This document shows, in pieces, positions 2-46,796 of a DNA stretch of 64,000 nucleotides (position 1 is its first letter; each line of letters opens with the position of its first letter). The stretch is taken from contig DATAOC010000020.1 of assembly GCA_036265915.1 (NCBI GenBank), positions 5,080-69,079 on the forward strand, in the 5' to 3' direction. The position numbers and the translations under genes are program-made. The notes below the pieces were generated by a model, which worked only from the letters and a program-made list of their open reading frames with translations, made no database searches and had not been told where the DNA came from. Source of the DNA: Candidatus Methylomirabilota bacterium (GTDB lineage Bacteria > Methylomirabilota > Methylomirabilia > Rokubacteriales > CSP1-6).

Positions 2-625
2 CCGCCGGTGGGCGTCGTTCCGGCCGTGCCGATCGACCATCGGCACCTCGGATCGCTGTCGCTTCTCGGCAGCACGGTTGACGCTGTCCCTCCCGCGAAC
101 CCGAAGACGCTGGCGCTTCATCACGATGTGGTCGCCTCGACCCTCGAGGCGGCTGCCGTGCTGCCGTTCCGGTACGGCACCGCGGTTGCCGATGCCGACG
201 CCGATGGCTGGCTTGCGACGCAGCGCACGGCGCTCGAGGCCGCCCTGGCCCAGGTGCGCGGCTGCGTCGAGATGAGCGTCAAGCTGCTCCGCCTCGACCA
301 GGACCTGGAGCAACAGGCCAATCCGACCGACGCCGTGCTGCGCGCGCTGGCGGACCAGCTCGTGGACCGCGCGGGCGTCGAGCGGTGGCGCTATCGACCC
401 GCGGGCACTGGAGGCAATGTCGTGGCGTCCGTGGCCTTTCTGCTGCCGCGCGCGGACCTCGCGGAGTTCCTCGGTCGCATCGCGCCAATCGCATCGAGAG
501 CGATCGGGGTGGCGGTGGTGCCGACCGGGCCGTGGCCCGCGTACTCGTTCGTTCCGGCGTTCGACCGGCCGCCCCTCGCCAGCGTGCCACCGCCGTCGTC
601 GTCGTCGACTCGCCGCGCGGGGTAG
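2..625 (+). CDS. GvpL/GvpF-family gas vesicle protein, 5'-truncated by the window edge
   Basis: The frame is open from nt 2 with no upstream stop, so the true start lies outside the window. The product contains 'VLPFRYGT' and 'VVPTGPWPAYSFVP'. These match the two most conserved GvpL/GvpF blocks as I remember them (e.g. haloarchaeal GvpF 'PMSFG' and 'TGPWPPYNF'). Confidence 0.6.
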   Translation, partial: PPVGVVPAVPIDHRHLGSLSLLGSTVDAVPPANPKTLALHHDVVASTLEAAAVLPFRYGTAVADADADGWLATQRTALEAALAQVRGCVEMSVKLLRLDQDLEQQANPTDAVLRALADQLVDRAGVERWRYRPAGTGGNVVASVAFLLPRADLAEFLGRIAPIASRAIGVAVVPTGPWPAYSFVPAFDRPPLASVPPPSSSSTRRAG

Positions 626-885: not shown

Positions 886-1713
886 ATGGCGATTATCGTC
901 GTGTCGACGCAGATGGGCGCGGGCGGACCGGAGATCGGCATGGCGCTCGGACAGCGCCTGGGCTACCGCTACGTGGACCAGGAGCTGCTGCAGGATGCCG
1001 GCCGACGGTACGGTCTCGCCGAGGAGAAGCTCTCGCATCTCGACGAGTCGAAGCCGACGATCTTCGAGCGGTTCGACGCGGAGACCCGGCATCACATCAC
1101 GGTGCTGCAGACGACCCTGCTCGAGCTGGCCGAGCTCGACAACTGCGTCTTCATGCGCGGCGGTGGCCAGTGGCTCCTGCGCGGCGTGCCGCACGTGCTG
1201 CGAGTCCGGCTCATCGCGCCGTTCGAGCACCGGGTGAAGTGCTGGATCAAGCGCGTGGCCGCGATGACGGGCGAGACGCCGAACCAGCGCGCCGCGGCCG
1301 ATTTCGTGCGACGCGACGACAGCGAGAAGTCGGGACGCATGCGGTACCTGTATGAGGTCGACATCAACGATCCGATGCTCTACGAGCTCATGGTGAACAC
1401 CGAGCGTCAGACGTACGACGCGGTGGTGCAGATGCTGGAGACCGTGGTGCGGCGGCCCGAGATGACCACGTCCGAGGCCGGCCGCAAGGTCGTCGCCGCC
1501 CGCGCGCTGGCGTCGCGGGTCCAGGTGGCGCTCGCGACGCACCCGGAGACGCGCCGCTATCGGATCACCGTGGAGGCGCACGATGGCGTGGTGACCCTCG
1601 AGGGCACCGCCGCCCTGGACCACGCGGTCGACGTCGCGCGCTCGGTCCCCGGCGTGCGGGACGTGCGGACCCAGCAGGTCGAGATCCCGCCGATTCCGCC
1701 GTTCGTGGCCTAG
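886..1713 (+). CDS. cytidylate-kinase-like (P-loop NMP-kinase-like) protein fused to a C-terminal BON domain
   Basis: The N-terminus 'IIVVSTQMGAGGPEIG' and overall layout resemble the cytidylate-kinase-like family. The C-terminal 'YRITVEAHDGVVTLEGTAALDHAVDVARSVPGVRDVRTQ' has a BON-domain pattern. Confidence 0.6.
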   Translation: MAIIVVSTQMGAGGPEIGMALGQRLGYRYVDQELLQDAGRRYGLAEEKLSHLDESKPTIFERFDAETRHHITVLQTTLLELAELDNCVFMRGGGQWLLRGVPHVLRVRLIAPFEHRVKCWIKRVAAMTGETPNQRAAADFVRRDDSEKSGRMRYLYEVDINDPMLYELMVNTERQTYDAVVQMLETVVRRPEMTTSEAGRKVVAARALASRVQVALATHPETRRYRITVEAHDGVVTLEGTAALDHAVDVARSVPGVRDVRTQQVEIPPIPPFVA

Positions 1714-2885
1714 CGGGTCGCGCCTCCGCCGCTCTCCGGCGACTCCGCGATCGTCAGCTGCACCGTCTTGCGCTGTCCCCGGCGGACGTAGTCGAGCTTG
1801 ACCGTCTTGCCGACCTCCGCCTCCGACGACAACCGCTGCAGGTGATGGTAGTCATCGACGTCGACACCGTCGAACTTCATCACGACGTCGTTCTGCGCGA
1901 GTCCCGCGGTCTCGGCCGGACTGCCGGGGTGCACGCGGGCCACGATCGCGCCCCTCGTGTCCGGTAGCCCGAGGGCCTGCGCCAGCTCCTTCGACATGGG
2001 CTGGAGCGAAACGCCGATCCAGCCGCGGGTGACCTTGCCGCGGTCGATGAGCTGGGCGGTGACCCGCTTCACCATGTTGGCCGGGATTGCGAAGCCGATG
2101 CCCTGGCCGGTGGCGACGATGGCGGTGTTGATGCCGATGACCTCGCCGCGCAGGTTCAGCAGCGGACCGCCGGAGTTGCCCGGGTTGATGGAGGCATCCG
2201 TCTGGATGAAGTTCTCGTAGGTCGCGATCCCGACGTCGGCGCGCCCGACGGCGCTGACGACGCCGACGGTGACCGTCTGATCGAGCCCGAACGGATTGCC
2301 GATGGCAATGGCCCATTCCCCCACGCGGAGAGCGTCGGAGTTGCCGAGCGTGGCGACACGCAGCTCCCCATCGGGGTCGAACTTGATGATCGCCAGGTCG
2401 GTCTTCGGGTCGGCGCCGACGATGCGTCCGCGCATCTCCTGCTTGGATGCAAGCCGCACGGTGACGCCGTCGGCGCCCTTGACCACGTGGAAGTTGGTGA
2501 GCACGTAGCCGCGCTTGTCGATGATGACACCCGAGCCGAGACCGGGCGTTCGAAACTCTTCCCGTTGACCCGGTCCGCCGCGACCGAAGAACTGGTCGAA
2601 GAAGTCCTTGAAGAACGGATCGTCGGCATTCGGGCCGGGGACCACCGGCGGTCGGCGTGAGCGGGCCACCTGAACGGTGCCGAGGTGCACGACGGCCGGG
2701 CGCACTGTCTCCGCGACGTTGACGAAGGCGGCCTGAAGCGCGTCGGCCGTGCCCATCGGTGAAGGCGCCGCCGCCTTCGCCGACGCGCCGGGCGCGCCCA
2801 GCCACCCGTAAAGGGCGAAAGCCGCGCCGGCACAGGCGAAAAGGGCCGAGGCGAGCACGACCGCGCGGGCGGTCTGCGGGGTCAT
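1710..2885 (-). CDS. htrA: HtrA/DegP-family periplasmic serine endoprotease with one PDZ domain
   Basis: There is an N-terminal hydrophobic signal/anchor. Catalytic-triad contexts are 'TNFHVV', 'DLAIIK' and 'GNSGGPLLN', with a C-terminal PDZ-like region 'GSPAETAGLAQNDVVMKFDG'. Confidence 0.9.
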   Translation of the reverse strand: MTPQTARAVVLASALFACAGAAFALYGWLGAPGASAKAAAPSPMGTADALQAAFVNVAETVRPAVVHLGTVQVARSRRPPVVPGPNADDPFFKDFFDQFFGRGGPGQREEFRTPGLGSGVIIDKRGYVLTNFHVVKGADGVTVRLASKQEMRGRIVGADPKTDLAIIKFDPDGELRVATLGNSDALRVGEWAIAIGNPFGLDQTVTVGVVSAVGRADVGIATYENFIQTDASINPGNSGGPLLNLRGEVIGINTAIVATGQGIGFAIPANMVKRVTAQLIDRGKVTRGWIGVSLQPMSKELAQALGLPDTRGAIVARVHPGSPAETAGLAQNDVVMKFDGVDVDDYHHLQRLSSEAEVGKTVKLDYVRRGQRKTVQLTIAESPESGGGATR

Positions 2886-39727: not shown

Positions 39728-40456
39728 ATGAGCCAGAGCGTCGTCACCCCCGAGCGCTTCGCGCAGGGCCGGACGTTCGACGAGTACGTGCGCTACGTCG
39801 GCAGCCCGGAGAACCTGTCGCGCGAGGCCTTCGGCAGCTACTATCCGGACGGTGGCGCCATGCCGGCCACGCGCAAGGACCAGAGCGCCGTCTTCCGCGA
39901 GCGATATGCGCGCGTGCGCCTGGGCGAGCAGCAGACGGCCGCCATCAAGTGGCTCGCGGCCCAGCCGCACGGGCCCGCGAAGATTCTGGTGATCTCCGAG
40001 GACTGGTCCTCCGACTGCCGTCGCGACGTCCCCATGCTGGCGCGCGTGGCCGAGGCGGGACGCATGGAGCTGCGCATCTTCAATCGCGACGGCAAGAAGA
40101 TCCTCGGCACGCGGCGGCCCGATCCCGCCGCGCATCCGGACGGCAACCACGATCTCATGCTGGAATTCCTGAACACGAAGAACGGCGGCGCCTGGGCATC
40201 GGTGCCAGTGGCCGTCTTCTACACGGCCGAGCTCGAGGAGCTGCATCGGTACATCGAGTACCCGGCGATCTACCACAAGGACGCGATCCGCGGCCGCCAG
40301 CAGGCCGTTCGCCCCGGCGAGACGGAGGCCGAGGCGCGCGAGCGCGCGCAGCGGGAGTTCGTGGCGCTGCAGCAGTCGCCCTTCTTCGACGTGTGGGCGG
40401 CCGCCGGCGTCGACGAGATCATCAGCGCGCTCTACGAAGCGGTCACCAGCCGCTAG
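39728..40456 (+). CDS. thioredoxin-fold family protein
   Basis: 'ILVISEDWSSDCRRDVPMLARV' is the thioredoxin-like-fold family pattern with a single Cys. The SD is GGAGGAGG. Confidence 0.55.
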   Translation: MSQSVVTPERFAQGRTFDEYVRYVGSPENLSREAFGSYYPDGGAMPATRKDQSAVFRERYARVRLGEQQTAAIKWLAAQPHGPAKILVISEDWSSDCRRDVPMLARVAEAGRMELRIFNRDGKKILGTRRPDPAAHPDGNHDLMLEFLNTKNGGAWASVPVAVFYTAELEELHRYIEYPAIYHKDAIRGRQQAVRPGETEAEARERAQREFVALQQSPFFDVWAAAGVDEIISALYEAVTSR

Positions 40457-40466
40457 AGGAGCTTCG

Positions 40467-41447
40467 ATGAGCAGTGTGACGACGACCGAGCCGCGGCTGG
40501 CGCTGGAGCAGAACCTGCATCTCTACCGCCAGATGGCGAAGATCCGCGCCTTCGAGGAGCAGGTGAACGAGCTGTACAGGAGCGCCCGGATGCCGGGGCT
40601 CGCCCACCTCTACGTGGGCGAGGAGGGCGTGGCGGTCGGGGTGTGCGAGGCGCTGCGGCGCGACGATTTCATCACGAGCACCCATCGCGGCCACGGCCAC
40701 TGCCTGGCCAAGGGCGCCGCGGTGAACCGCATGTTTGCCGAGCTGCTCGGCAAGGAGCCCGGCTACTGCCGCGGCAAGGGCGGCTCCATGCACATCGCCG
40801 ATCCGGAAACCGGCAACCTGGGGGCCAACGCGATCGTCGGCGGCTCGGCCGGGATCGCCACCGGCGCCGCGCTCTCGGCGAAGATGCGGGGCAGCGGGCA
40901 GGTGGCGGTATGCTTCTTCGGCGACGGCGCGCTCGGGCAGGGCGTGCTCTACGAGGCGATGAACATGGCCGCCTTGTGGAAGCTGCCGGTCATCTACGTC
41001 TGCGAGAACAACCTCTACGGCGAGTACACCCCGTGCGGCGAGACGCTGGCCGGCGAGATCCTCGCGCGCGCGCGTGCCTTCGGCATCCAGGCCGAGACCG
41101 TCGACGGCCAGGACGTCCAGCTCGTCAACGCGACCATGCTGCGGCTCGTGGAGCGCGCCCGCCGCGGCGAGGGGCCGGCGTTCCTCGAGTGCAAGACCTA
41201 CCGGTACTACGGTCACCACGTGGGCGACGTCAATCGCGATTACCGCACGCGTGAGGAGGAGCGGCTCTGGATGACCGAGCACGATCCGCTCGAGACGCTG
41301 GCCGCGCGCCTGAAGCCGTTCGTCGACGACGGGACGTTCGAGCGCATCCTGAGCGACGTGAAGTCGGAGATCGAGCGCGGCGTCGAGTATGCGCTCGCGG
41401 CGCCGTACCCCGACGTCCGTCAGGTGGACGAGGACGTCTACGCGTGA
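40467..41447 (+). CDS. thiamine-diphosphate-dependent 2-oxoacid (pyruvate/acetoin-type) dehydrogenase E1 alpha subunit
   Basis: It has 'GLAHLYVGEEGVAVG', 'TSTHRGHGHCLAKG', 'GKGGSMH', the TPP motif 'FFGDGALGQG...NMAALWKLPVIYVCENN' and 'YRYYGHHVGD'. Confidence 0.88.
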   Translation: MSSVTTTEPRLALEQNLHLYRQMAKIRAFEEQVNELYRSARMPGLAHLYVGEEGVAVGVCEALRRDDFITSTHRGHGHCLAKGAAVNRMFAELLGKEPGYCRGKGGSMHIADPETGNLGANAIVGGSAGIATGAALSAKMRGSGQVAVCFFGDGALGQGVLYEAMNMAALWKLPVIYVCENNLYGEYTPCGETLAGEILARARAFGIQAETVDGQDVQLVNATMLRLVERARRGEGPAFLECKTYRYYGHHVGDVNRDYRTREEERLWMTEHDPLETLAARLKPFVDDGTFERILSDVKSEIERGVEYALAAPYPDVRQVDEDVYA

Positions 41448-41454
41448 GGCGCCG

Positions 41455-42438
41455 ATGCTGACGCGGCGCGCGCTGCTGCGGCTCATGTCCGCGGCGACGG
41501 CAGGGGCGGCGCTGCGGCCATCGGTGACGCTGGCGCAGCGAGGAGGACCGCCGCGCGTCGGCTGGCTGTCCTACGTGACCAATCCCGACCAGGGGCTCGA
41601 GCACCTGCGCGAGGGGCTGCGCGAGCTCGGCTACGCGGAGGGGAAATCCTTTGTCGTGGTGGCGCGGTTCGCCGACTGGGACTTCACCCGCCTGCCGCGC
41701 CTGGTGGAGGAGCTCGGCGGTGAGCGGCTCGACGTCGTCGTCTCGCGTGGACCGTCCACGGACTATCTGAAGCCGCTGCGCGCGAAGGTGCCCGTGGTCT
41801 TCGCCTACAGCGGCGACCCGGTCGTGGCCGGGTTCGCCGACGCGCTCGGCCGGCCCGGGCGCAACATGACCGGCATCACGTTCATGGCGCTGGAGCTCTC
41901 GGCCAAGCGGGTTGACGTCCTGAAGGAGCTGCTGCCGCGGGCAGGCCGGATCGCGCTCCTTTCCAACCCGGAGCACGCCGGTGAGCTCGAGGAGTACCGC
42001 GTGACGGACGAGGCCGCCCGCCGCGCCGGCGTGGTCATGACGCGCCATCTCGTGCGCAATCCCCAGGAACTGGTCGCGATGATGGCCGAGATTCGCTCGA
42101 CCCGTCCCGACGGGATGATCGTCTTTCCCGACTCGCTGACGCTGAACCGCCGCAAGGAGATCGCCGACTTCGCGGCGCGCGAGCGCATCCCGACGATGTA
42201 CGGGTGGACGGAGTTCGTGGAGTCCGGGGGTCTCATCAGCTACGGGCCCACCGTCACCGAGCACTTCAAGACGCTGGCCAAGTTCGTCGACAAGATCCTG
42301 AAGGGCGCCGACGCCAACACGCTGCCCATCGAGCAGGTGAGCCGCATCGGTCTGTCGCTCAACATGAGCGCCGTGCGGGCCATGGGCCTCACCGTTCCGC
42401 CGTCGATCCTGCTGCGTGCCGATCGCGTGATCGAGTAG
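41455..42438 (+). CDS. ABC transporter substrate-binding protein (ABC_sub_bind-like) with a twin-arginine-type signal
   Basis: The N-terminus is 'MLTRRALLRLMSAATAGAALRP'. Later blocks 'NMTGITF', 'KRVDVLKELLP' and 'LSLNMSAVRAMGLTVP' are typical of this family. Confidence 0.7.
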   Translation: MLTRRALLRLMSAATAGAALRPSVTLAQRGGPPRVGWLSYVTNPDQGLEHLREGLRELGYAEGKSFVVVARFADWDFTRLPRLVEELGGERLDVVVSRGPSTDYLKPLRAKVPVVFAYSGDPVVAGFADALGRPGRNMTGITFMALELSAKRVDVLKELLPRAGRIALLSNPEHAGELEEYRVTDEAARRAGVVMTRHLVRNPQELVAMMAEIRSTRPDGMIVFPDSLTLNRRKEIADFAARERIPTMYGWTEFVESGGLISYGPTVTEHFKTLAKFVDKILKGADANTLPIEQVSRIGLSLNMSAVRAMGLTVPPSILLRADRVIE

Positions 42439-42446
42439 ACGACCGC

Positions 42447-43409
42447 TCACGCCTCCGTGCCGCCCGCCGCCAGTGGCGCGAGCGCCGTCAGCGGATACCC
42501 GCGCTCCCGCCACGCGCGCAGGCCGCCGTCGAGCGGGTGCACGCGCGAGATCCCCCGACGTCGAAGCAGCAGCGCCACCCGGGCGCTCGACGCTTCGTTC
42601 GGTCACGTGCAGTAGAGGACGATGTCGCGCTCGCGCGGGATCTCGCGGTACCGCGCGTCCAGCTCGTCGGTGGCGAGGTGGAGCGCGCCCGGGATGATGG
42701 TCGGCTCGGCGTCGAAGTCCAGCCGGTCGCGCACGTCGACCACGACGATGTTCTCGCCCGCGTCCAGACGGCGCTTGAGCTCCTCCGGCGTGATGCGGGC
42801 GATGCGGATCTTGCGCAGGAAGCGGCGTCGCGCGACGTACTTGTAGGCAATGTACGCGGCGAAGCCGGCGACGATCATGAAGCCGACCCGGCCGCCGAGA
42901 CGCTGCGCGTACGCCGCCACGATCTCCAGCTGGTCGGTGAAGATCCAGCCGAGCGCCACCCACGCCCCCGCCCAGATCAAGCCGCCGGCCGCGGTGAAGA
43001 GCACGAAGGTCGCGAGCGGCATGCGGACGATGCCGGCCAGCGGCGGCGCCGCCGTGTTGAAGCCCGGGATGAACTTGGCCACGAGCAGTGAGGGTGCGCC
43101 GTGGGCGCTGAAGTTGCGCTCGGTGCGTCGGACGCACGAGTCGGGCTCGAGCGAGATCCGGCACAGCCAGCCGAGCACGCGCATGCCGCCGCGGCGGCCG
43201 ATCCAGTACCAGATGGTGTCGCTGATGAGCGAGGCCGTCCCGGCCGCCACGAGCACCACCGCGAAGCTGAGGCGGCCGGTCCCGGCCAGCCCCCCGGCGG
43301 CCAGTAAGAAGGGCACGGCGGGCAGCGGCAGGCCGATCTGCTCTGCGAGGACCCAGCCGAACACGATCAGATAGCCGTGTCGCGCCAGGGCGTCCGCGAT
43401 GGCGTCCAT
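42447..43409 (-). CDS. DedA-family membrane protein fused to a rhodanese-like domain, interrupted by an in-frame TGA (42603-42605): candidate selenoprotein or pseudogene
   Basis: The N-terminus 'YLIVFGWVLAEQIGLPLPAVPFLLAAG' is DedA/SNARE-associated. After the last TM comes 'ITPEELKRRLDAGENIVVVDVRD...RDIVLYCT', then TGA. The same frame continues 'PNEASSARVALLLRRRGISRVHPLDGGLRAWRERGYPL' to a TGA at 42447-42449, which completes the rhodanese fold. Confidence 0.6.
42559..42596 (-). other. RNA hairpin starting 7 nt 3' of the in-frame UGA (candidate bacterial SECIS-like element)
   Basis: The mRNA reads UGA CCGAAC GAAGCGUCG AGCGCC CGGGU GGCGCU GCUGCUUCGACG. AGCGCC/GGCGCU form 6 perfect bp closing the 5-nt loop CGGGU. 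The lower stem is either GAAGC/GCUUC or CGUCG/CGACG (5 bp each). Confidence 0.3.
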
Positions 43410-43544
43410 GACGAGCGTCCTTTCTCGAGCGACCGGCGCTGCATCGGCCTGCCGGACCGGGACCGGCGCGTGCCGCCGCTGACGTCCTGAAGATGCTCGC
43501 GCCGGGGGCCGAGGTTCACCGACGACTCGGCGGGCCGCCCGCGG

Positions 43545-44276
43545 TCAGACGCCGAGATAGTACTGCTTCACGAGCTCGTGCTCCCGCAGCGCGCTCGTGC
43601 TGCCGCCCTCGAAGGCGATCTGCCCGTGCACGATGATGTAGCCGCGGTCGGCGATCTTGGTGGCCTGGTTGAAGTTCTGCTCCGCCATGAGCACGGTCAG
43701 CTGGTACTCGTCCTTCAGCTCCTTGATCTTGGCGATGACGCGGCTGACGAGGATCGGGGCCAGCCCCACCGACGGCTCGTCGACCAGGAGCAGGCGCGGC
43801 GAGGACATCAGCGCGCGCGCGATGGCCAGCATCTGCTGCTCGCCGCCGCTCATGCTGCCGGCGAGCTGGCGGCGGCGGGCGCGCAGGACGGCGAAGGCCT
43901 CGTACGCGAAGGCGAGATTGCGTGCGATGTCGGCGCGGGCGGCCTTGCGATACGCGCCGAGCAGCAGGTTCTCCTCGACGGTGAGGCGGGGGAACAGCCG
44001 GCGCCCTTCGGGCACGAGCGCGATGCCGAGGCCGACGATCTCCTCCGTCGACTTGCGGGTGAGGTCGATGCGCTGCCCGTCCGTCTCGAGGAAGACTTCG
44101 CCCGCGGCCGGCGTGACCATGCCCATGATGCACTTGATGAGCGTGCTCTTGCCGTTGCCATTGGTGCCGAGCAGGGCGACCGTCTCGCCCTCGCGCACCT
44201 CGATCGACACGCCGTGCAGCACGCGCACGGCGCCGTACCCGGCCTCGACGCCGCGCACCACGAGCCTACTCGCCAA
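43545..44276 (-). CDS. livF: branched-chain amino acid-type ABC transporter ATP-binding protein (LivF-like)
   Basis: It has Walker A 'GTNGNGKST', signature 'MSGGEQQMLAIARAL' and Walker B 'LLLVDEPS'. Confidence 0.9.
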   Translation of the reverse strand: MASRLVVRGVEAGYGAVRVLHGVSIEVREGETVALLGTNGNGKSTLIKCIMGMVTPAAGEVFLETDGQRIDLTRKSTEEIVGLGIALVPEGRRLFPRLTVEENLLLGAYRKAARADIARNLAFAYEAFAVLRARRRQLAGSMSGGEQQMLAIARALMSSPRLLLVDEPSVGLAPILVSRVIAKIKELKDEYQLTVLMAEQNFNQATKIADRGYIIVHGQIAFEGGSTSALREHELVKQYYLGV

Positions 44277-44982
44277 GGTAGGCCTTCTCGACGGCGGGAT
44301 GCCTGACGATCTCCGCCGGCGTTCCCTCCGCGATGCGCTCGCCGGCGTCGAGCACGACGATTCGCTCGGAGAAGCGCATCACCGCCCGCATGATGTGCTC
44401 GATCATGATGATCGTGATCCCCTGCGCGCTCAGGCGGAACAGGATGGCGAGGATGTCATCGACCTCGGCGCTCGACAGGCCGGCCATCGCCTCGTCGGAG
44501 ATGAGCAGCTTCGGGCGCGCGGCCATGGCCCGGGCCAGCTCGAGCTTGCGCATCTCGATCTGGGTGAGCCCGGCCGGCCGCAGGTGCGCCTTGGCATGAA
44601 GCCCGATCTCGCGCAGGATGTCGGCGGCCTCCGCGGCGCCGCCGTGGCGCGCGTGGCCGGCGTACTCGAGCGGGATCTCGAGATTCTCGCGCACCGTCAT
44701 GCTGGTGAACGGCTTCGGAATCTGAAAGCTCCGCGCGATGCCGAGGCGGGTGCGCCGGTGCGGCGGCAGCGTCGTGATGTCCTGGCCGGCCAGGCGGATG
44801 CGCCCCTCGTCCGCGCGCAGCGAGCCGGCCACGCAGTTGATCAGCGTCGTCTTGCCGGAGCCGTTGGGCCCGATGAGGCCGAAGCGCTCGCCGGCCCGGA
44901 CCTCGAGCGTCACGCGGTTGAGCGCGGTGAAGCCGCCGAAGCGCTTCACCACGCCCTCGACCTCGAGCAGCGGCGCTGCCAT
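44266..44982 (-). CDS. livG: branched-chain amino acid-type ABC transporter ATP-binding protein (LivG-like)
   Basis: The start at ATG 44982 ('MAAPLLEVEGVVKRFGG') was chosen inside the longer track ORF. It has Walker A 'GPNGSGKTT' and Walker B 'LLISDEAMAG'. It overlaps livF by 11 nt. Confidence 0.9.
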   Translation of the reverse strand: MAAPLLEVEGVVKRFGGFTALNRVTLEVRAGERFGLIGPNGSGKTTLINCVAGSLRADEGRIRLAGQDITTLPPHRRTRLGIARSFQIPKPFTSMTVRENLEIPLEYAGHARHGGAAEAADILREIGLHAKAHLRPAGLTQIEMRKLELARAMAARPKLLISDEAMAGLSSAEVDDILAILFRLSAQGITIIMIEHIMRAVMRFSERIVVLDAGERIAEGTPAEIVRHPAVEKAYLGE

Positions 44983-44987
44983 CGCGT

Positions 44988-45923
44988 TCAGCGTCCTCGC
45001 AGCCGCCGCACGAGGCCCAGCAAACCCTCGGGCGCCAGGACCACGAAGCCGACCAGCACGACGCCGACGATGAAGAGGTTCAGCTCGGACGAGATCGTCA
45101 CCGTGGCCAGCTGCTGCGCGCTGCCGAGCAGGATGGCCCCGATGACGGGGCCGACCCAGCTGGTGGTGCCGCCGATCATCGGCATGGCGAGCGCGTTCAC
45201 GGCGTAATCCAGGTTGAAGGCGGAGTTCGGCTCCACGAACGTCACGTAGTACGGAAACGGTGCCCCGGCCACGCCGAGCAGAAAGCCGCTCACCGTCGTC
45301 GCGAAGAGCTTGAGCCGGAGCGTCGGCACGCCCATGCACTCGGCCGCCTCCTCGTTGTCTCGCAGCGCGGCCAGTCCGCGCCCGACCCACGACCGCTCGA
45401 TGAGGCGGGCCACGGTGACCGCGATCACGGCGAGCGCGAGCATGACGGTGAAGAGGAACACGACGTAGTTGCCGAACGGCGGCCCGGGCGGGCGGATGAC
45501 GCTGATGCCGCGCGAGCCACCCACGTACTCCCAGTTGATGATCATCGTCTGCAGCACCACCGAGAGCGCCAGCGTGGCGATGGAGAAGAACGTGCCGCGC
45601 AGACGCAGGGTGAGGTAGCCGATGCCGAGCCCGAGCAGGGCGGACACGAGGCCGCCGGCGAGGATGAGCACCGGCAGCGGCGCGTGCAGTGACCGGATGA
45701 GCGCCACCGCGGTGTAGGCGCCGAGCGCGAAGAAGGCGGGGGTGCCGAAGTTCACGTAGCCCGCGTAGCCGCCGAGGATATTCCACGCGGTCGCGATGAC
45801 GACATACTGCAGGATGACGTAGCCGGCGAAGTAGAGGTACGGATTCAGCCGCAGCGTGGCGAGCGCCACGCCGGCGGCGACGATCGCGGCCCCCGCCACC
45901 ACCGTGAGGCTCGCGCGTTGCAT
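44988..45923 (-). CDS. livM: branched-chain amino acid-type ABC transporter permease (LivM-like)
   Basis: It is a multi-TM protein with 'ILGGYAGYVNFGTPAFFALGAY' and 'ALRDNEEAAECMGV', typical of LivM. Confidence 0.85.
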   Translation of the reverse strand: MQRASLTVVAGAAIVAAGVALATLRLNPYLYFAGYVILQYVVIATAWNILGGYAGYVNFGTPAFFALGAYTAVALIRSLHAPLPVLILAGGLVSALLGLGIGYLTLRLRGTFFSIATLALSVVLQTMIINWEYVGGSRGISVIRPPGPPFGNYVVFLFTVMLALAVIAVTVARLIERSWVGRGLAALRDNEEAAECMGVPTLRLKLFATTVSGFLLGVAGAPFPYYVTFVEPNSAFNLDYAVNALAMPMIGGTTSWVGPVIGAILLGSAQQLATVTISSELNLFIVGVVLVGFVVLAPEGLLGLVRRLRGR

Positions 45924-46796
45924 CTAGCGGCCGAACAGTCCGGCCGGCCGCACGGCCAGGACGAGGAGGAGCACGCCGAACGACACCGCCTGTGACCACG
46001 AGGGACCGAAGAAGGTCGACATGAGGCTCTCGGTGATGCCGAGCATGACGGCCGCCACCAGCGTCCCGCCGATGCTGCCCATGCCGCCCAGCACGGTGAT
46101 CGCGAACATGCGGCCGATGTAGTCGCGGTCCGTCGACGGCACCACCGGCGCGATGGTGATGAGCAGCGCGCCGGCGAGGCTGGCGGCCGCGATGCCGATG
46201 CCGAAGGCGATCGTCTTGATCTGCACGGGATCCGCCCCCATCAGCCGCAGCGCGAGGCGGTCCTGCGAGACGGCCATGATGGCGCGCCCGTAGAACGTCC
46301 GGCCGAGGAAGACGTAGAGCGCCACCGTCATCGCGATGCCGACCACGCAGGGCACCAGGTAGCGATACGCGATGCCGACGCCGCCGATGTCGATGGACTT
46401 GCCGATGTAGGGGGCCTGCACGAGGCGATAGTCGACGCCGAACTTCAGGCTGAGGCTCACCTCGATGATGAAGAGAATGCCGAAGAAGAACACCAGCCCG
46501 CGCAGCGACTCCTCACCGCGCCGCTCGAAGCTGCCGTAGTAGACGCGGTACACGACGGCGCCGACGACATAGAACACCGGCGTGAACAGGATGCCGGTCA
46601 GGATGGGGTCGAGGCCGTAGGCGCCGTTCATCACGTAGGCGGCGTAGGCGCCCACGATCACGAACGCCGGCTGCGCGATGTTCGCGATGTCGAGCAGCCC
46701 GAAGATGAGACCCACGCCGAGGCTGACCGCCGCGTAGAAGCCGCCGATCAGCAGGCCGGCGACCACCGCGTTGGCCAGCAGGTCCCACGAGAACAC
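45924..46796 (-). CDS. livH: branched-chain amino acid-type ABC transporter permease (LivH-like)
   Basis: It has 'GLLIGGFYAAVSLGVGLIFG' and 'AMRAVSQD'-like 'IMAVSQDRLALRLMG'. It abuts livM with no gap. Confidence 0.85.
   Translation of the reverse strand: MFSWDLLANAVVAGLLIGGFYAAVSLGVGLIFGLLDIANIAQPAFVIVGAYAAYVMNGAYGLDPILTGILFTPVFYVVGAVVYRVYYGSFERRGEESLRGLVFFFGILFIIEVSLSLKFGVDYRLVQAPYIGKSIDIGGVGIAYRYLVPCVVGIAMTVALYVFLGRTFYGRAIMAVSQDRLALRLMGADPVQIKTIAFGIGIAAASLAGALLITIAPVVPSTDRDYIGRMFAITVLGGMGSIGGTLVAAVMLGITESLMSTFFGPSWSQAVSFGVLLLVLAVRPAGLFGR

Follow-up and report, generated by a model that had tools for sequence, protein, structure and literature searches.

The window analysed here, a stretch of 64,000 nucleotides from a Candidatus Methylomirabilota bacterium (contig DATAOC010000020.1), carries on its minus strand a gene for a membrane protein of the DedA type fused to a rhodanese domain (43409..42447), and this gene contains an in-frame UGA codon. 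The open reading frame (ORF) begins with an ATG at 43409-43407 and runs for 268 codons to the tail R-D-I-V-L-Y-C-T, where it meets a TGA at 42605-42603. Downstream of this codon another 51 sense codons (PNEASSARVALLLRRRGISRVHPLDGGLRAWRERGYPLTALAPLAAGGTEA) follow in frame up to a second TGA at 42449-42447, the true stop of a 320-amino-acid product. An earlier note on this DNA had described the ending at LYCT and an extension of 52 codons; both are present in the sequence, the 52 codons being the 51 sense codons plus the stop. The stretch 3' of the in-frame TGA is coding-like, with a GC content at third codon positions (GC3) of 0.88 in a 64-kb window of 71.6 % GC. A Shine-Dalgarno-like AAGGA can be read from the sequence 8 nt upstream of the ATG (43418..43422, minus strand), and we were not able to find a sigma-70-like promoter or a terminator by scanning positions 42300-43700.

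When the UGA is read through, the product matches two Pfam domains: a VTT/DedA domain at residues 29-155 (42945..43325, minus strand; PF09335, 59.8 bits with a cut-off of 33.9) and a complete rhodanese domain at residues 207-302 (42504..42791, minus strand; PF00581, 55.6 bits with a cut-off of 22.2), the latter being interrupted by the UGA. The downstream frame thus completes a rhodanese fold, as the earlier note had supposed. The exact 268-residue product has an NCBI entry, 'VTT domain-containing protein [Methylomirabilota bacterium]', in which it is annotated in truncated form (cluster P0001), and the same cluster also goes under the name 'membrane protein DedA' in public records (NCBI, JGI). 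The same truncation occurs in dozens of clusters, some of them with more than 100 members (P0051 with 214, P0079 with 179 and P0052 with 115). The results described below indicate that this is very probably a real selenoprotein gene, in which the UGA at 42603..42605 (minus strand) is decoded as selenocysteine (Sec), residue 269 in the motif C267-T-U269-P-N-E. Judged from the sequence comparisons, the true product is the one of 320 residues, and not the one of 268 residues found in databases.

We searched 5.8 billion proteins with the read-through product, in which U was written as C, and found thousands of relatives, among which the 120 best protein clusters were examined. In 76 of these 120 clusters the proteins stop at exactly the same place, with tails of the form ...[IV][IV]LYC[TS] and at 66-85 % identity, and 72 of the 76 are exactly 268 amino acids long. 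The other 44 clusters comprise proteins of 310-332 amino acids, each of which reads LYC[TA]-C-P-[SNT]-E, with a Cys at the UGA column. The earlier note had given the motif C-x-C-P-N-E-A for rhodanese modules of this type; in the form C-x-C-P-[NST]-E it is found in all 44 full-length proteins and in all 32 Cys-type loci of the survey described next.

In this survey one genome per bacterial species was scanned, which yielded 80 loci. It allows the residue at the UGA column to be recorded in homologues, a check that the earlier note had proposed: the codon is TGA in 48 genomes, TGC in 21 and TGT in 11, with no case of TAA or TAG. In each of the 48 TGA loci the frame is open past the TGA and encodes the conserved sequence PNEA[ST]SARVALLL..RPLxGG..W, the C-terminal half of the rhodanese domain. 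The hosts of the TGA-type genes are Rokubacteria/Methylomirabilota, many Acidobacteriota (Terriglobia, Acidoferrum, Bryobacteraceae, Blastocatellia) and Binatia, as well as metagenome-assembled genomes (MAGs) whose annotation is Deltaproteobacteria or, in one case, Planctomycetota. The Cys-type genes are found chiefly in Nitrospira/Nitrospiraceae and in Verrucomicrobiota. A neighbour-joining tree of the family requires at least 5 changes between Sec and Cys.

We also ran HMMER exhaustively against 1.84 billion representatives of 50 %-identity clusters, with residues 200-268 only as the query, and obtained 1726 relatives; 99 of the 150 best end exactly at C-x, and most of the relatives with this ending have the last DedA helix just upstream. 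Five proteins of 66-75 amino acids (P0213, P0222, P0230, P0238 and P0245), which are 45-54 % identical to the rhodanese domain of the window, begin at the rhodanese domain (M-A-R-I...) and end in ...[FY]C-x. By their sequence these five resemble free-standing C-x-U rhodanese selenoproteins that were cut off at the Sec codon, and they may be of the type described by the NCBIfam model NF041203.

The second line of evidence comes from the RNA just downstream of the UGA. With the U of the UGA numbered as +1, the sequence AGCGCC at nt +19..+24 can pair with GGCGCU at nt +30..+35 around the loop CGGGU at nt +25..+29 (42571..42587, minus strand). This core hairpin begins 15 nt after the UGA, and its 17 nt fold with an energy of -9.2 kcal/mol. 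It can be extended by a lower stem that includes GAAGC/GCUUC, begins at the 7th nt after the UGA and spans nt +9..+44 (42562..42597, minus strand; -20.5 kcal/mol for 47 nt). The stem, loop and lower stem therefore exist as the earlier note had drawn them; the lower stem shows no conservation across homologues.

The core hairpin agrees with every published constraint on the bacterial selenocysteine insertion sequence (SECIS), which supports the suggestion made in the earlier note that it acts as one. These constraints are a loop of 3-9 nt, an upper stem of 4-16 bp, a distance of 16-37 nt from the UGA to the loop, a minimum free energy of at most -7.5 kcal/mol, and a loop with G within its first two positions, followed by G or U (PMC13188914). 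Here the loop is of 5 nt, the stem of 6-7 bp, the spacing of 21 nt and the energy as given above, and the apical loop CGGGU has a G at position 2 followed by a G, as the SECIS model requires. As in the bacterial SECIS consensus (the Zhang and Gladyshev model, per PMC13188914), the hairpin lies just 3' of the UGA, within the coding region, and has a small apical loop. It differs from that consensus in that both loop and stem sequence are specific to this family and almost invariant.

Conservation of this element is confined to genes that carry the TGA. All 49 TGA genes read TGA CCN AAY GAR GCN NCN AGC GCC CGK GYG GCG CTN, and the near-invariant hairpin AGCGCC-CGKGY-GGCGCU is found in TGA genes only. 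At codons +6..+11, which cover the hairpin, the third-position entropy is 0.37 bits in Sec genes and 1.40 bits in Cys genes; the corresponding values are 1.45 and 1.51 bits in the 30 codons upstream, and 1.69 and 1.51 bits at codons +12..+25. At four synonymous positions the 49 Sec genes show no variation at all. The 17-nt element has a mean free energy of -9.26 kcal/mol in Sec genes versus -4.75 kcal/mol in Cys genes, and a perfect hairpin, with a 6-bp stem and a 5-nt loop, can be formed in 44 of the 49 Sec genes as compared with 4 of the 32 Cys genes. In four Cys-type genes that are nested within the Sec clade (L031, L049, L060 and L075) the hairpin has decayed at synonymous sites, a pattern that we read from the aligned sequences as SECIS erosion following the replacement of Sec by Cys. 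An example is L031, where the codon became TGC (AGCGCGCGGTTGGCGCT).

The pair formed by nt +18 and +36, both of which are synonymous third positions, covaries across the Sec genes: it is C-G in 25, G-C in 8, G-U in 2, U-G in 2 and unpaired in 12. None of 500 shuffles reached the observed covariation score, and slid registers scored lower. The window gene itself has G.G at these two positions, so that the covarying seventh pair of other genomes is not formed in it. We also noted two kinds of variant among Sec-type loci. In L015 (6805-6852) the hairpin reads AGCGCCA-GUC-UGGCGCU, with a 7-bp stem and a 3-nt loop whose first position is G; two changes create a new A-U pair, and the SECIS model is still satisfied. 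In L020, L026, L065 and L078 a Gln codon comes next, so that nt +35 is A and not U and the outermost pair, A19-U35, is lost; the five G-C pairs are still invariant in these genes.

Several results weigh against decoding of the UGA as Sec. Taken alone, the hairpin of the window is no more stable than shuffled sequences (z of -0.29 for 71 nt, -1.64 for 47 nt and -1.78 for 17 nt); it is within chance at 71.6 % GC, and its significance therefore comes from the comparison with homologues only. Five of the six core stem pairs are invariant, so that a single covarying pair supports structure over conservation of the primary sequence. A scan of positions 42350-42750 against Rfam (E <= 10) gave no match to a SECIS family, as is expected given that bacterial SECIS elements are family-specific; the matches that did appear, an ovine lentivirus frameshift element and a trypanosome snoRNA, were rejected as noise. 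A search for selA, selB, selD and tRNA-Sec was negative for the 64-kb window and for the flanking DNA of the 80 loci, and the roughly 10 kb past each window end that are covered by short sister contigs (ENA ERZ27279688 and JGI 3300038400) contain no sel genes; the genes seen on these contigs are for a response regulator, GvpL/F, an M20 peptidase, an MFS protein and HpcH. ARAGORN detected no tRNA-Sec in the window and the 48 Sec-type loci, and a tblastn search with E. coli SelA, SelB and SelD gave no matches in the window and the 80 loci, implying that the sel genes are unlinked to this gene. Furthermore, no neighbouring gene is conserved across the 81 loci that were compared, so that the neighbourhood gives no hint of a pathway.

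At the level of the phylum, the literature does point to the use of Sec in these organisms. A Methylomirabilota MAG with 63 predicted selenoprotein genes has been reported (Deng et al. 2026, Cell Rep 45:116760), and Sec-type [NiFeSe] hydrogenases are known in the literature from Methylomirabilota and Acidobacteriota. Both phyla are Sec users according to the literature, a support that holds for the phylum only. A screen of the window based on GC3 for other genes with in-frame TGA codons produced only five candidates, all of which turned out to be just adjacent genes in the same frame; this screen was insensitive, as its threshold on GC content at second codon positions missed the true site.

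How else might the UGA be explained? The earlier note had left room for a recent nonsense mutation or a base-call error, and one may add a pseudogene lesion or an assembly error, in an ordinary Cys-type gene. A single change from TGC or TGT to TGA would be enough for this, and Cys-type orthologues do exist at 32 of the 80 loci. However, a lesion or an error of this kind is excluded, since 48 independent species-level genomes share the TGA at this column, as do 76 of the 120 best clusters, at 66-85 % identity; in all TGA genes the frame past the codon is intact and conserved, and the RNA hairpin is conserved in TGA genes only. We give this explanation almost no credence. A global reassignment of UGA was likewise rejected, because TGA is an ordinary stop in 21 of the 30 confident ORFs of the window, the true stop of this very gene included. 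It could still be argued that the UGA at 42605-42603 is a true terminator, that the 268-residue DedA protein is functional and merely ends in a rhodanese stub, and that the conservation downstream reflects an RNA element or a separate peptide. Gene callers and NCBI do annotate 268 amino acids (P0001), and some termination is expected at any Sec-UGA when selenium is limiting. But such a product would be cut within the active-site loop of the rhodanese fold, and the downstream conservation is at the amino-acid level and in the same frame, with synonymous sites free outside the hairpin. We saw no conservation of a start codon, or of a context for ribosome binding, that would serve a separate peptide, and the Cys orthologues are continuous through this point. 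We therefore regard a true terminator as extremely unlikely.

It is also conceivable that the codon is recoded in the manner of SECIS and SelB, with a residue other than Sec being inserted, either Cys brought in on a non-canonical tRNA(Cys) acceptable to SelB or another residue through near-cognate read-through. A SelB-dependent recoding in which a non-canonical tRNA(Cys) reads UGA as Cys is on record (Vargas-Rodriguez et al. 2018, as cited in PMC13582414), and the inserted amino acid is not decidable by sequence analysis alone. Yet the repeated interchange of Sec and Cys, together with the loss of the hairpin when the codon becomes TGY, is the standard pattern of a selenoprotein. To keep a costly UGA and a SECIS across several phyla merely for the sake of Cys would be unparsimonious, and the motif matches that of a family curated as a selenoprotein (NF041203). 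The insertion of a non-Sec residue thus appears very unlikely. The earlier proposal of a Sec codon with a SECIS hairpin at a conserved Cys column is borne out by the exchange of Sec and Cys, by the conserved frame and by the constraint on the RNA that is seen in TGA genes only.

What would the selenocysteine do in this protein? Cys267 (codon at 42609..42611, minus strand) aligns with the catalytic Cys of two rhodaneses of known structure, 6mxv (YFYCGGGFRS) and 3tp9 (VYCRTGGRS), and it is invariant in 81 of 81 genes. Sec269 is accordingly the third residue of the active-site loop C-T-U-P-N-E. An AlphaFold model of P0002, a Cys homologue with 68 % identity, has a pLDDT (predicted local distance difference test) of 77.6, and a Foldseek search of the PDB with this model retrieved the rhodanese folds 3tp9, 3ilm and GlpE (1gmx), as well as 2mrm and 5hbo (YgaP). 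The search returned no solved DedA structure, and confirms the rhodanese fold alone. Since the Pfam threshold is passed and the catalytic Cys is present, the rhodanese domain is predicted to be of the catalytically competent type.

Among the NCBIfam models, NF041203 ('rhodanese_LYCAU, rhodanese-related (seleno)protein') gives this domain its best score, 86.9 bits, the match covering positions 17-123 of the 126 in the model. This score misses the curated cut-off of 115 bits, and Cys-type relatives, whether fused or short, score 65-90 bits. On these scores the domain is best seen as a sister clade that has the L-Y-C-x-U motif, and not as a member of NF041203 by NCBI's criterion. It shares with NF041203 (rhodanese form 3, 'LYCAU'), which is a predicted selenoprotein in PMC13188914 and PMC9312934, the single rhodanese fold, the L-Y-C-x-U motif and the Sec at +2 from the catalytic Cys. 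It differs from it in having T or S rather than A as the motif residue, and in being the C-terminal module (residues ~200-307) of a 320-residue DedA membrane protein rather than a soluble stand-alone protein of ~126 residues.

Two further proteins invite comparison. TsoB (NF045694, a rhodanese/DsbD fusion-like protein also called 'rhodanese form 5') is likewise a Sec-bearing rhodanese fused to a polytopic membrane domain, and thus provides a precedent for membrane-tethered rhodanese selenoproteins. Unlike the gene described here, it has two Sec residues in the motif UxxxxU and a DsbD-like membrane part, and our protein matches its model with 16 bits against a cut-off of 805. YgaP of E. coli, whose structures were among the fold matches (2mrm, 5hbo), is also a rhodanese tethered to the inner membrane; its rhodanese is N-terminal, however, followed by two C-terminal helices, with no DedA domain and a Cys-only active site, and the resemblance is functional only.

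The DedA domain is 28 % identical over its core to E. coli YghB, a member of the COG0586 type that also includes YqjA and the undecaprenyl-phosphate flippase UptA. In the flippases of this type four residues are essential, namely E39, D51, R130 and R136 in YghB numbering (PMC10127716). The glutamate is conserved here as E23, and R130 corresponds to K112, an invariant Lys. D51 corresponds to V32, a variable hydrophobic position, and R136 to N118, a position occupied by Asn or Ser, so that neither of these two residues is conserved. The UptA equivalog models fall far under their cut-offs (57.1 vs 250 and 48.3 vs 300 bits), as does PRK10847 (42 vs 236). The loss of two of the four essential residues suggests, as far as a comparison with YghB can tell, a substrate other than undecaprenyl phosphate, and canonical binding of undecaprenyl phosphate by the domain is improbable.

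The family has, in addition, invariant features of its own that set it apart from COG0586. One is a pair of cysteines, C83-x8-C92 (CRISLEPDSC, CRISLEPDSCVRR; 43134..43163, minus strand), in an extramembrane loop of the DedA domain: all 80 complete genes of the Sec and Cys types have Cys at both columns, and YghB lacks the pair. Another is D64. Following the DedA domain there is a last transmembrane helix and then a basic linker (KYVARRRFLRKIRIAR, residues ~173-205; 42795..42893, minus strand), the helix extending over residues 173-203 in the P0002 model. In TMEM41B, whose topology has been verified, both termini and the extramembrane region after the first transmembrane helix are cytosolic. 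By analogy with this topology, and given the position of the last helix (residues ~173-203 in the model) and the basic linker, to which the positive-inside rule applies, both the rhodanese domain and the C-x8-C loop are probably cytoplasmic. Four conserved Cys/Sec residues (C83, C92, C267 and U269) would then lie on the presumed cytoplasmic face of the membrane.

The comparison of homologues shows the hairpin at 42587-42571 to be the signal, a bacterial SECIS, by which the UGA at 42605-42603 is recoded; by analogy with other bacterial selenoprotein genes, it would recruit SelB with Sec-tRNA(Sec) to the ribosome. The resulting product would, by homology, consist of a polytopic DedA/VTT domain, a last transmembrane helix, a basic linker and a C-terminal rhodanese domain. 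In the latter, Cys267 may serve as the canonical persulfide carrier or may form a selenium adduct, and Sec269, two residues further on, may attack or resolve at Cys267, either by forming a selenenylsulfide or by taking and passing on sulfane sulfur or selenium. Sec might do so faster than the Cys of the Nitrospira- and Verrucomicrobia-type orthologues. A relay to C83 and C92 in the cytoplasmic DedA loop is possible, by which sulfur/selenium or redox chemistry could be coupled to the passage of the DedA domain's substrate, whatever it is, through the membrane. Our confidence in this chemistry, that is, in the C-x-U pair, the relay and the coupling to transport as suggested by the sequence, is much lower than our confidence in the selenoprotein assignment.

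A selenium or sulfur oxyanion role for the DedA-rhodanese protein is speculation, attractive given an old genetic link between DedA and selenite uptake (Ledgham et al. 2005). Put in its widest form, the idea would be that this is an uncatalogued and very widespread membrane selenoprotein family of bacteria from soil and groundwater (Methylomirabilota/Rokubacteria, Acidobacteriota, Binatia, MAGs annotated as Deltaproteobacteria and some Planctomycetota), in which C83, C92, C267 and U269 form a cytoplasmic selenium/sulfur relay mechanically coupled to a DedA transporter for a substrate other than undecaprenyl phosphate, and that the protein could serve in the uptake or trafficking of selenium or sulfur oxyanions. 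We put this forward only tentatively, as a rather doubtful possibility.

The genes around the selenoprotein gene in the window belong to diverse functions. Upstream of it lies a LivFGMH-like ABC transporter operon (43545-46796, minus strand), and its convergent neighbour is a gene for an ABC substrate-binding protein (41389-42438, plus strand). The longest ORF of this substrate-binding gene overlaps by 59 nt (41389-41447) the end of a gene for an E1 dehydrogenase subunit (40467-41447, plus strand), which lies further downstream of the selenoprotein gene, and it has a signal-peptide-like sequence (MLTRRALLRLMSAATAGAAL) from residue 23; the real start is probably further downstream than 41389. 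About 2 kb downstream of the selenoprotein gene there is a gene for a Thioredoxin_9-family protein with an S-S-D-C motif (39728-40456, plus strand; 52 bits), which is not a conserved neighbour across the 81 loci. Neighbours that recur in these loci are SDR (20), nitroreductase-like (17) and MarR-like (14) genes, all of them reflecting lineage-specific synteny. At the start of the window a gene of the GvpL/GvpF (gas-vesicle) family was found (8-625, plus strand; also at L083:3317-3988), adjoining genes for a cytidylate-kinase-like/BON protein (886-1713) and an HtrA-type protease (1710-2885, minus strand). A gene of this family is unexpected in a Methylomirabilota MAG from soil or groundwater.

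Much of what is described here has precedents. Bacterial families in which Sec and Cys alternate and which have a SECIS in the coding region are well established, and rhodanese selenoproteins are catalogued in five forms, one of them C-x-U. The earlier note had stated that rhodanese-related selenoproteins are a reported family, as is indeed the case for NF041203 ('rhodanese form 3', C-x-U). It had also suggested that a C-T-U motif on a DedA protein would be a new selenoprotein architecture. The part of this claim that concerns the fusion to DedA appears to stand, as such a fusion seems uncatalogued; the C-x-U rhodanese motif itself is not new. A 2026 inventory that covers 119 prokaryotic selenoprotein families and subfamilies does not list the DedA-rhodanese selenoprotein, and no NCBIfam model covers a Sec-containing DedA-rhodanese architecture. 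We found no description of a DedA selenoprotein in the literature that is searchable in full text; an earlier mention in Deng et al. 2026 or in Haft and Tolstoy 2025 is possible. Fusions of COG0586 proteins with rhodanese have been noted before, with the remark 'connection to UndP unclear' (PMC10127716). To judge from the sequence records, the new element therefore appears to be only the DedA-fused Sec architecture, both the C-x-U rhodanese and the Cys-type DedA-rhodanese fusions being known.

For the databases, the finding means that hundreds of entries of this family are truncated at residue 268 and have lost the second half of the rhodanese active site. Recognition of the Sec codon corrects this annotation and extends the known range of prokaryotic selenoproteins by a membrane-embedded architecture. 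It also bears on the acknowledged puzzle of the DedA-rhodanese fusions (PMC10127716): a Sec in the active-site loop, an invariant Cys pair and the loss of two essential residues point to redox or sulfur/selenium chemistry on the cytoplasmic side of the membrane rather than to plain flipping of a lipid carrier. The contrast between Sec-type and Cys-type genes provides a natural experiment on the gain and decay of a SECIS, and on the advantage of a Sec placed beside a persulfide-forming Cys. Finally, Acidobacteriota and Methylomirabilota, in which the family is common, are abundant phyla in soil, so that the family may add substantially to the demand for selenium in soils.

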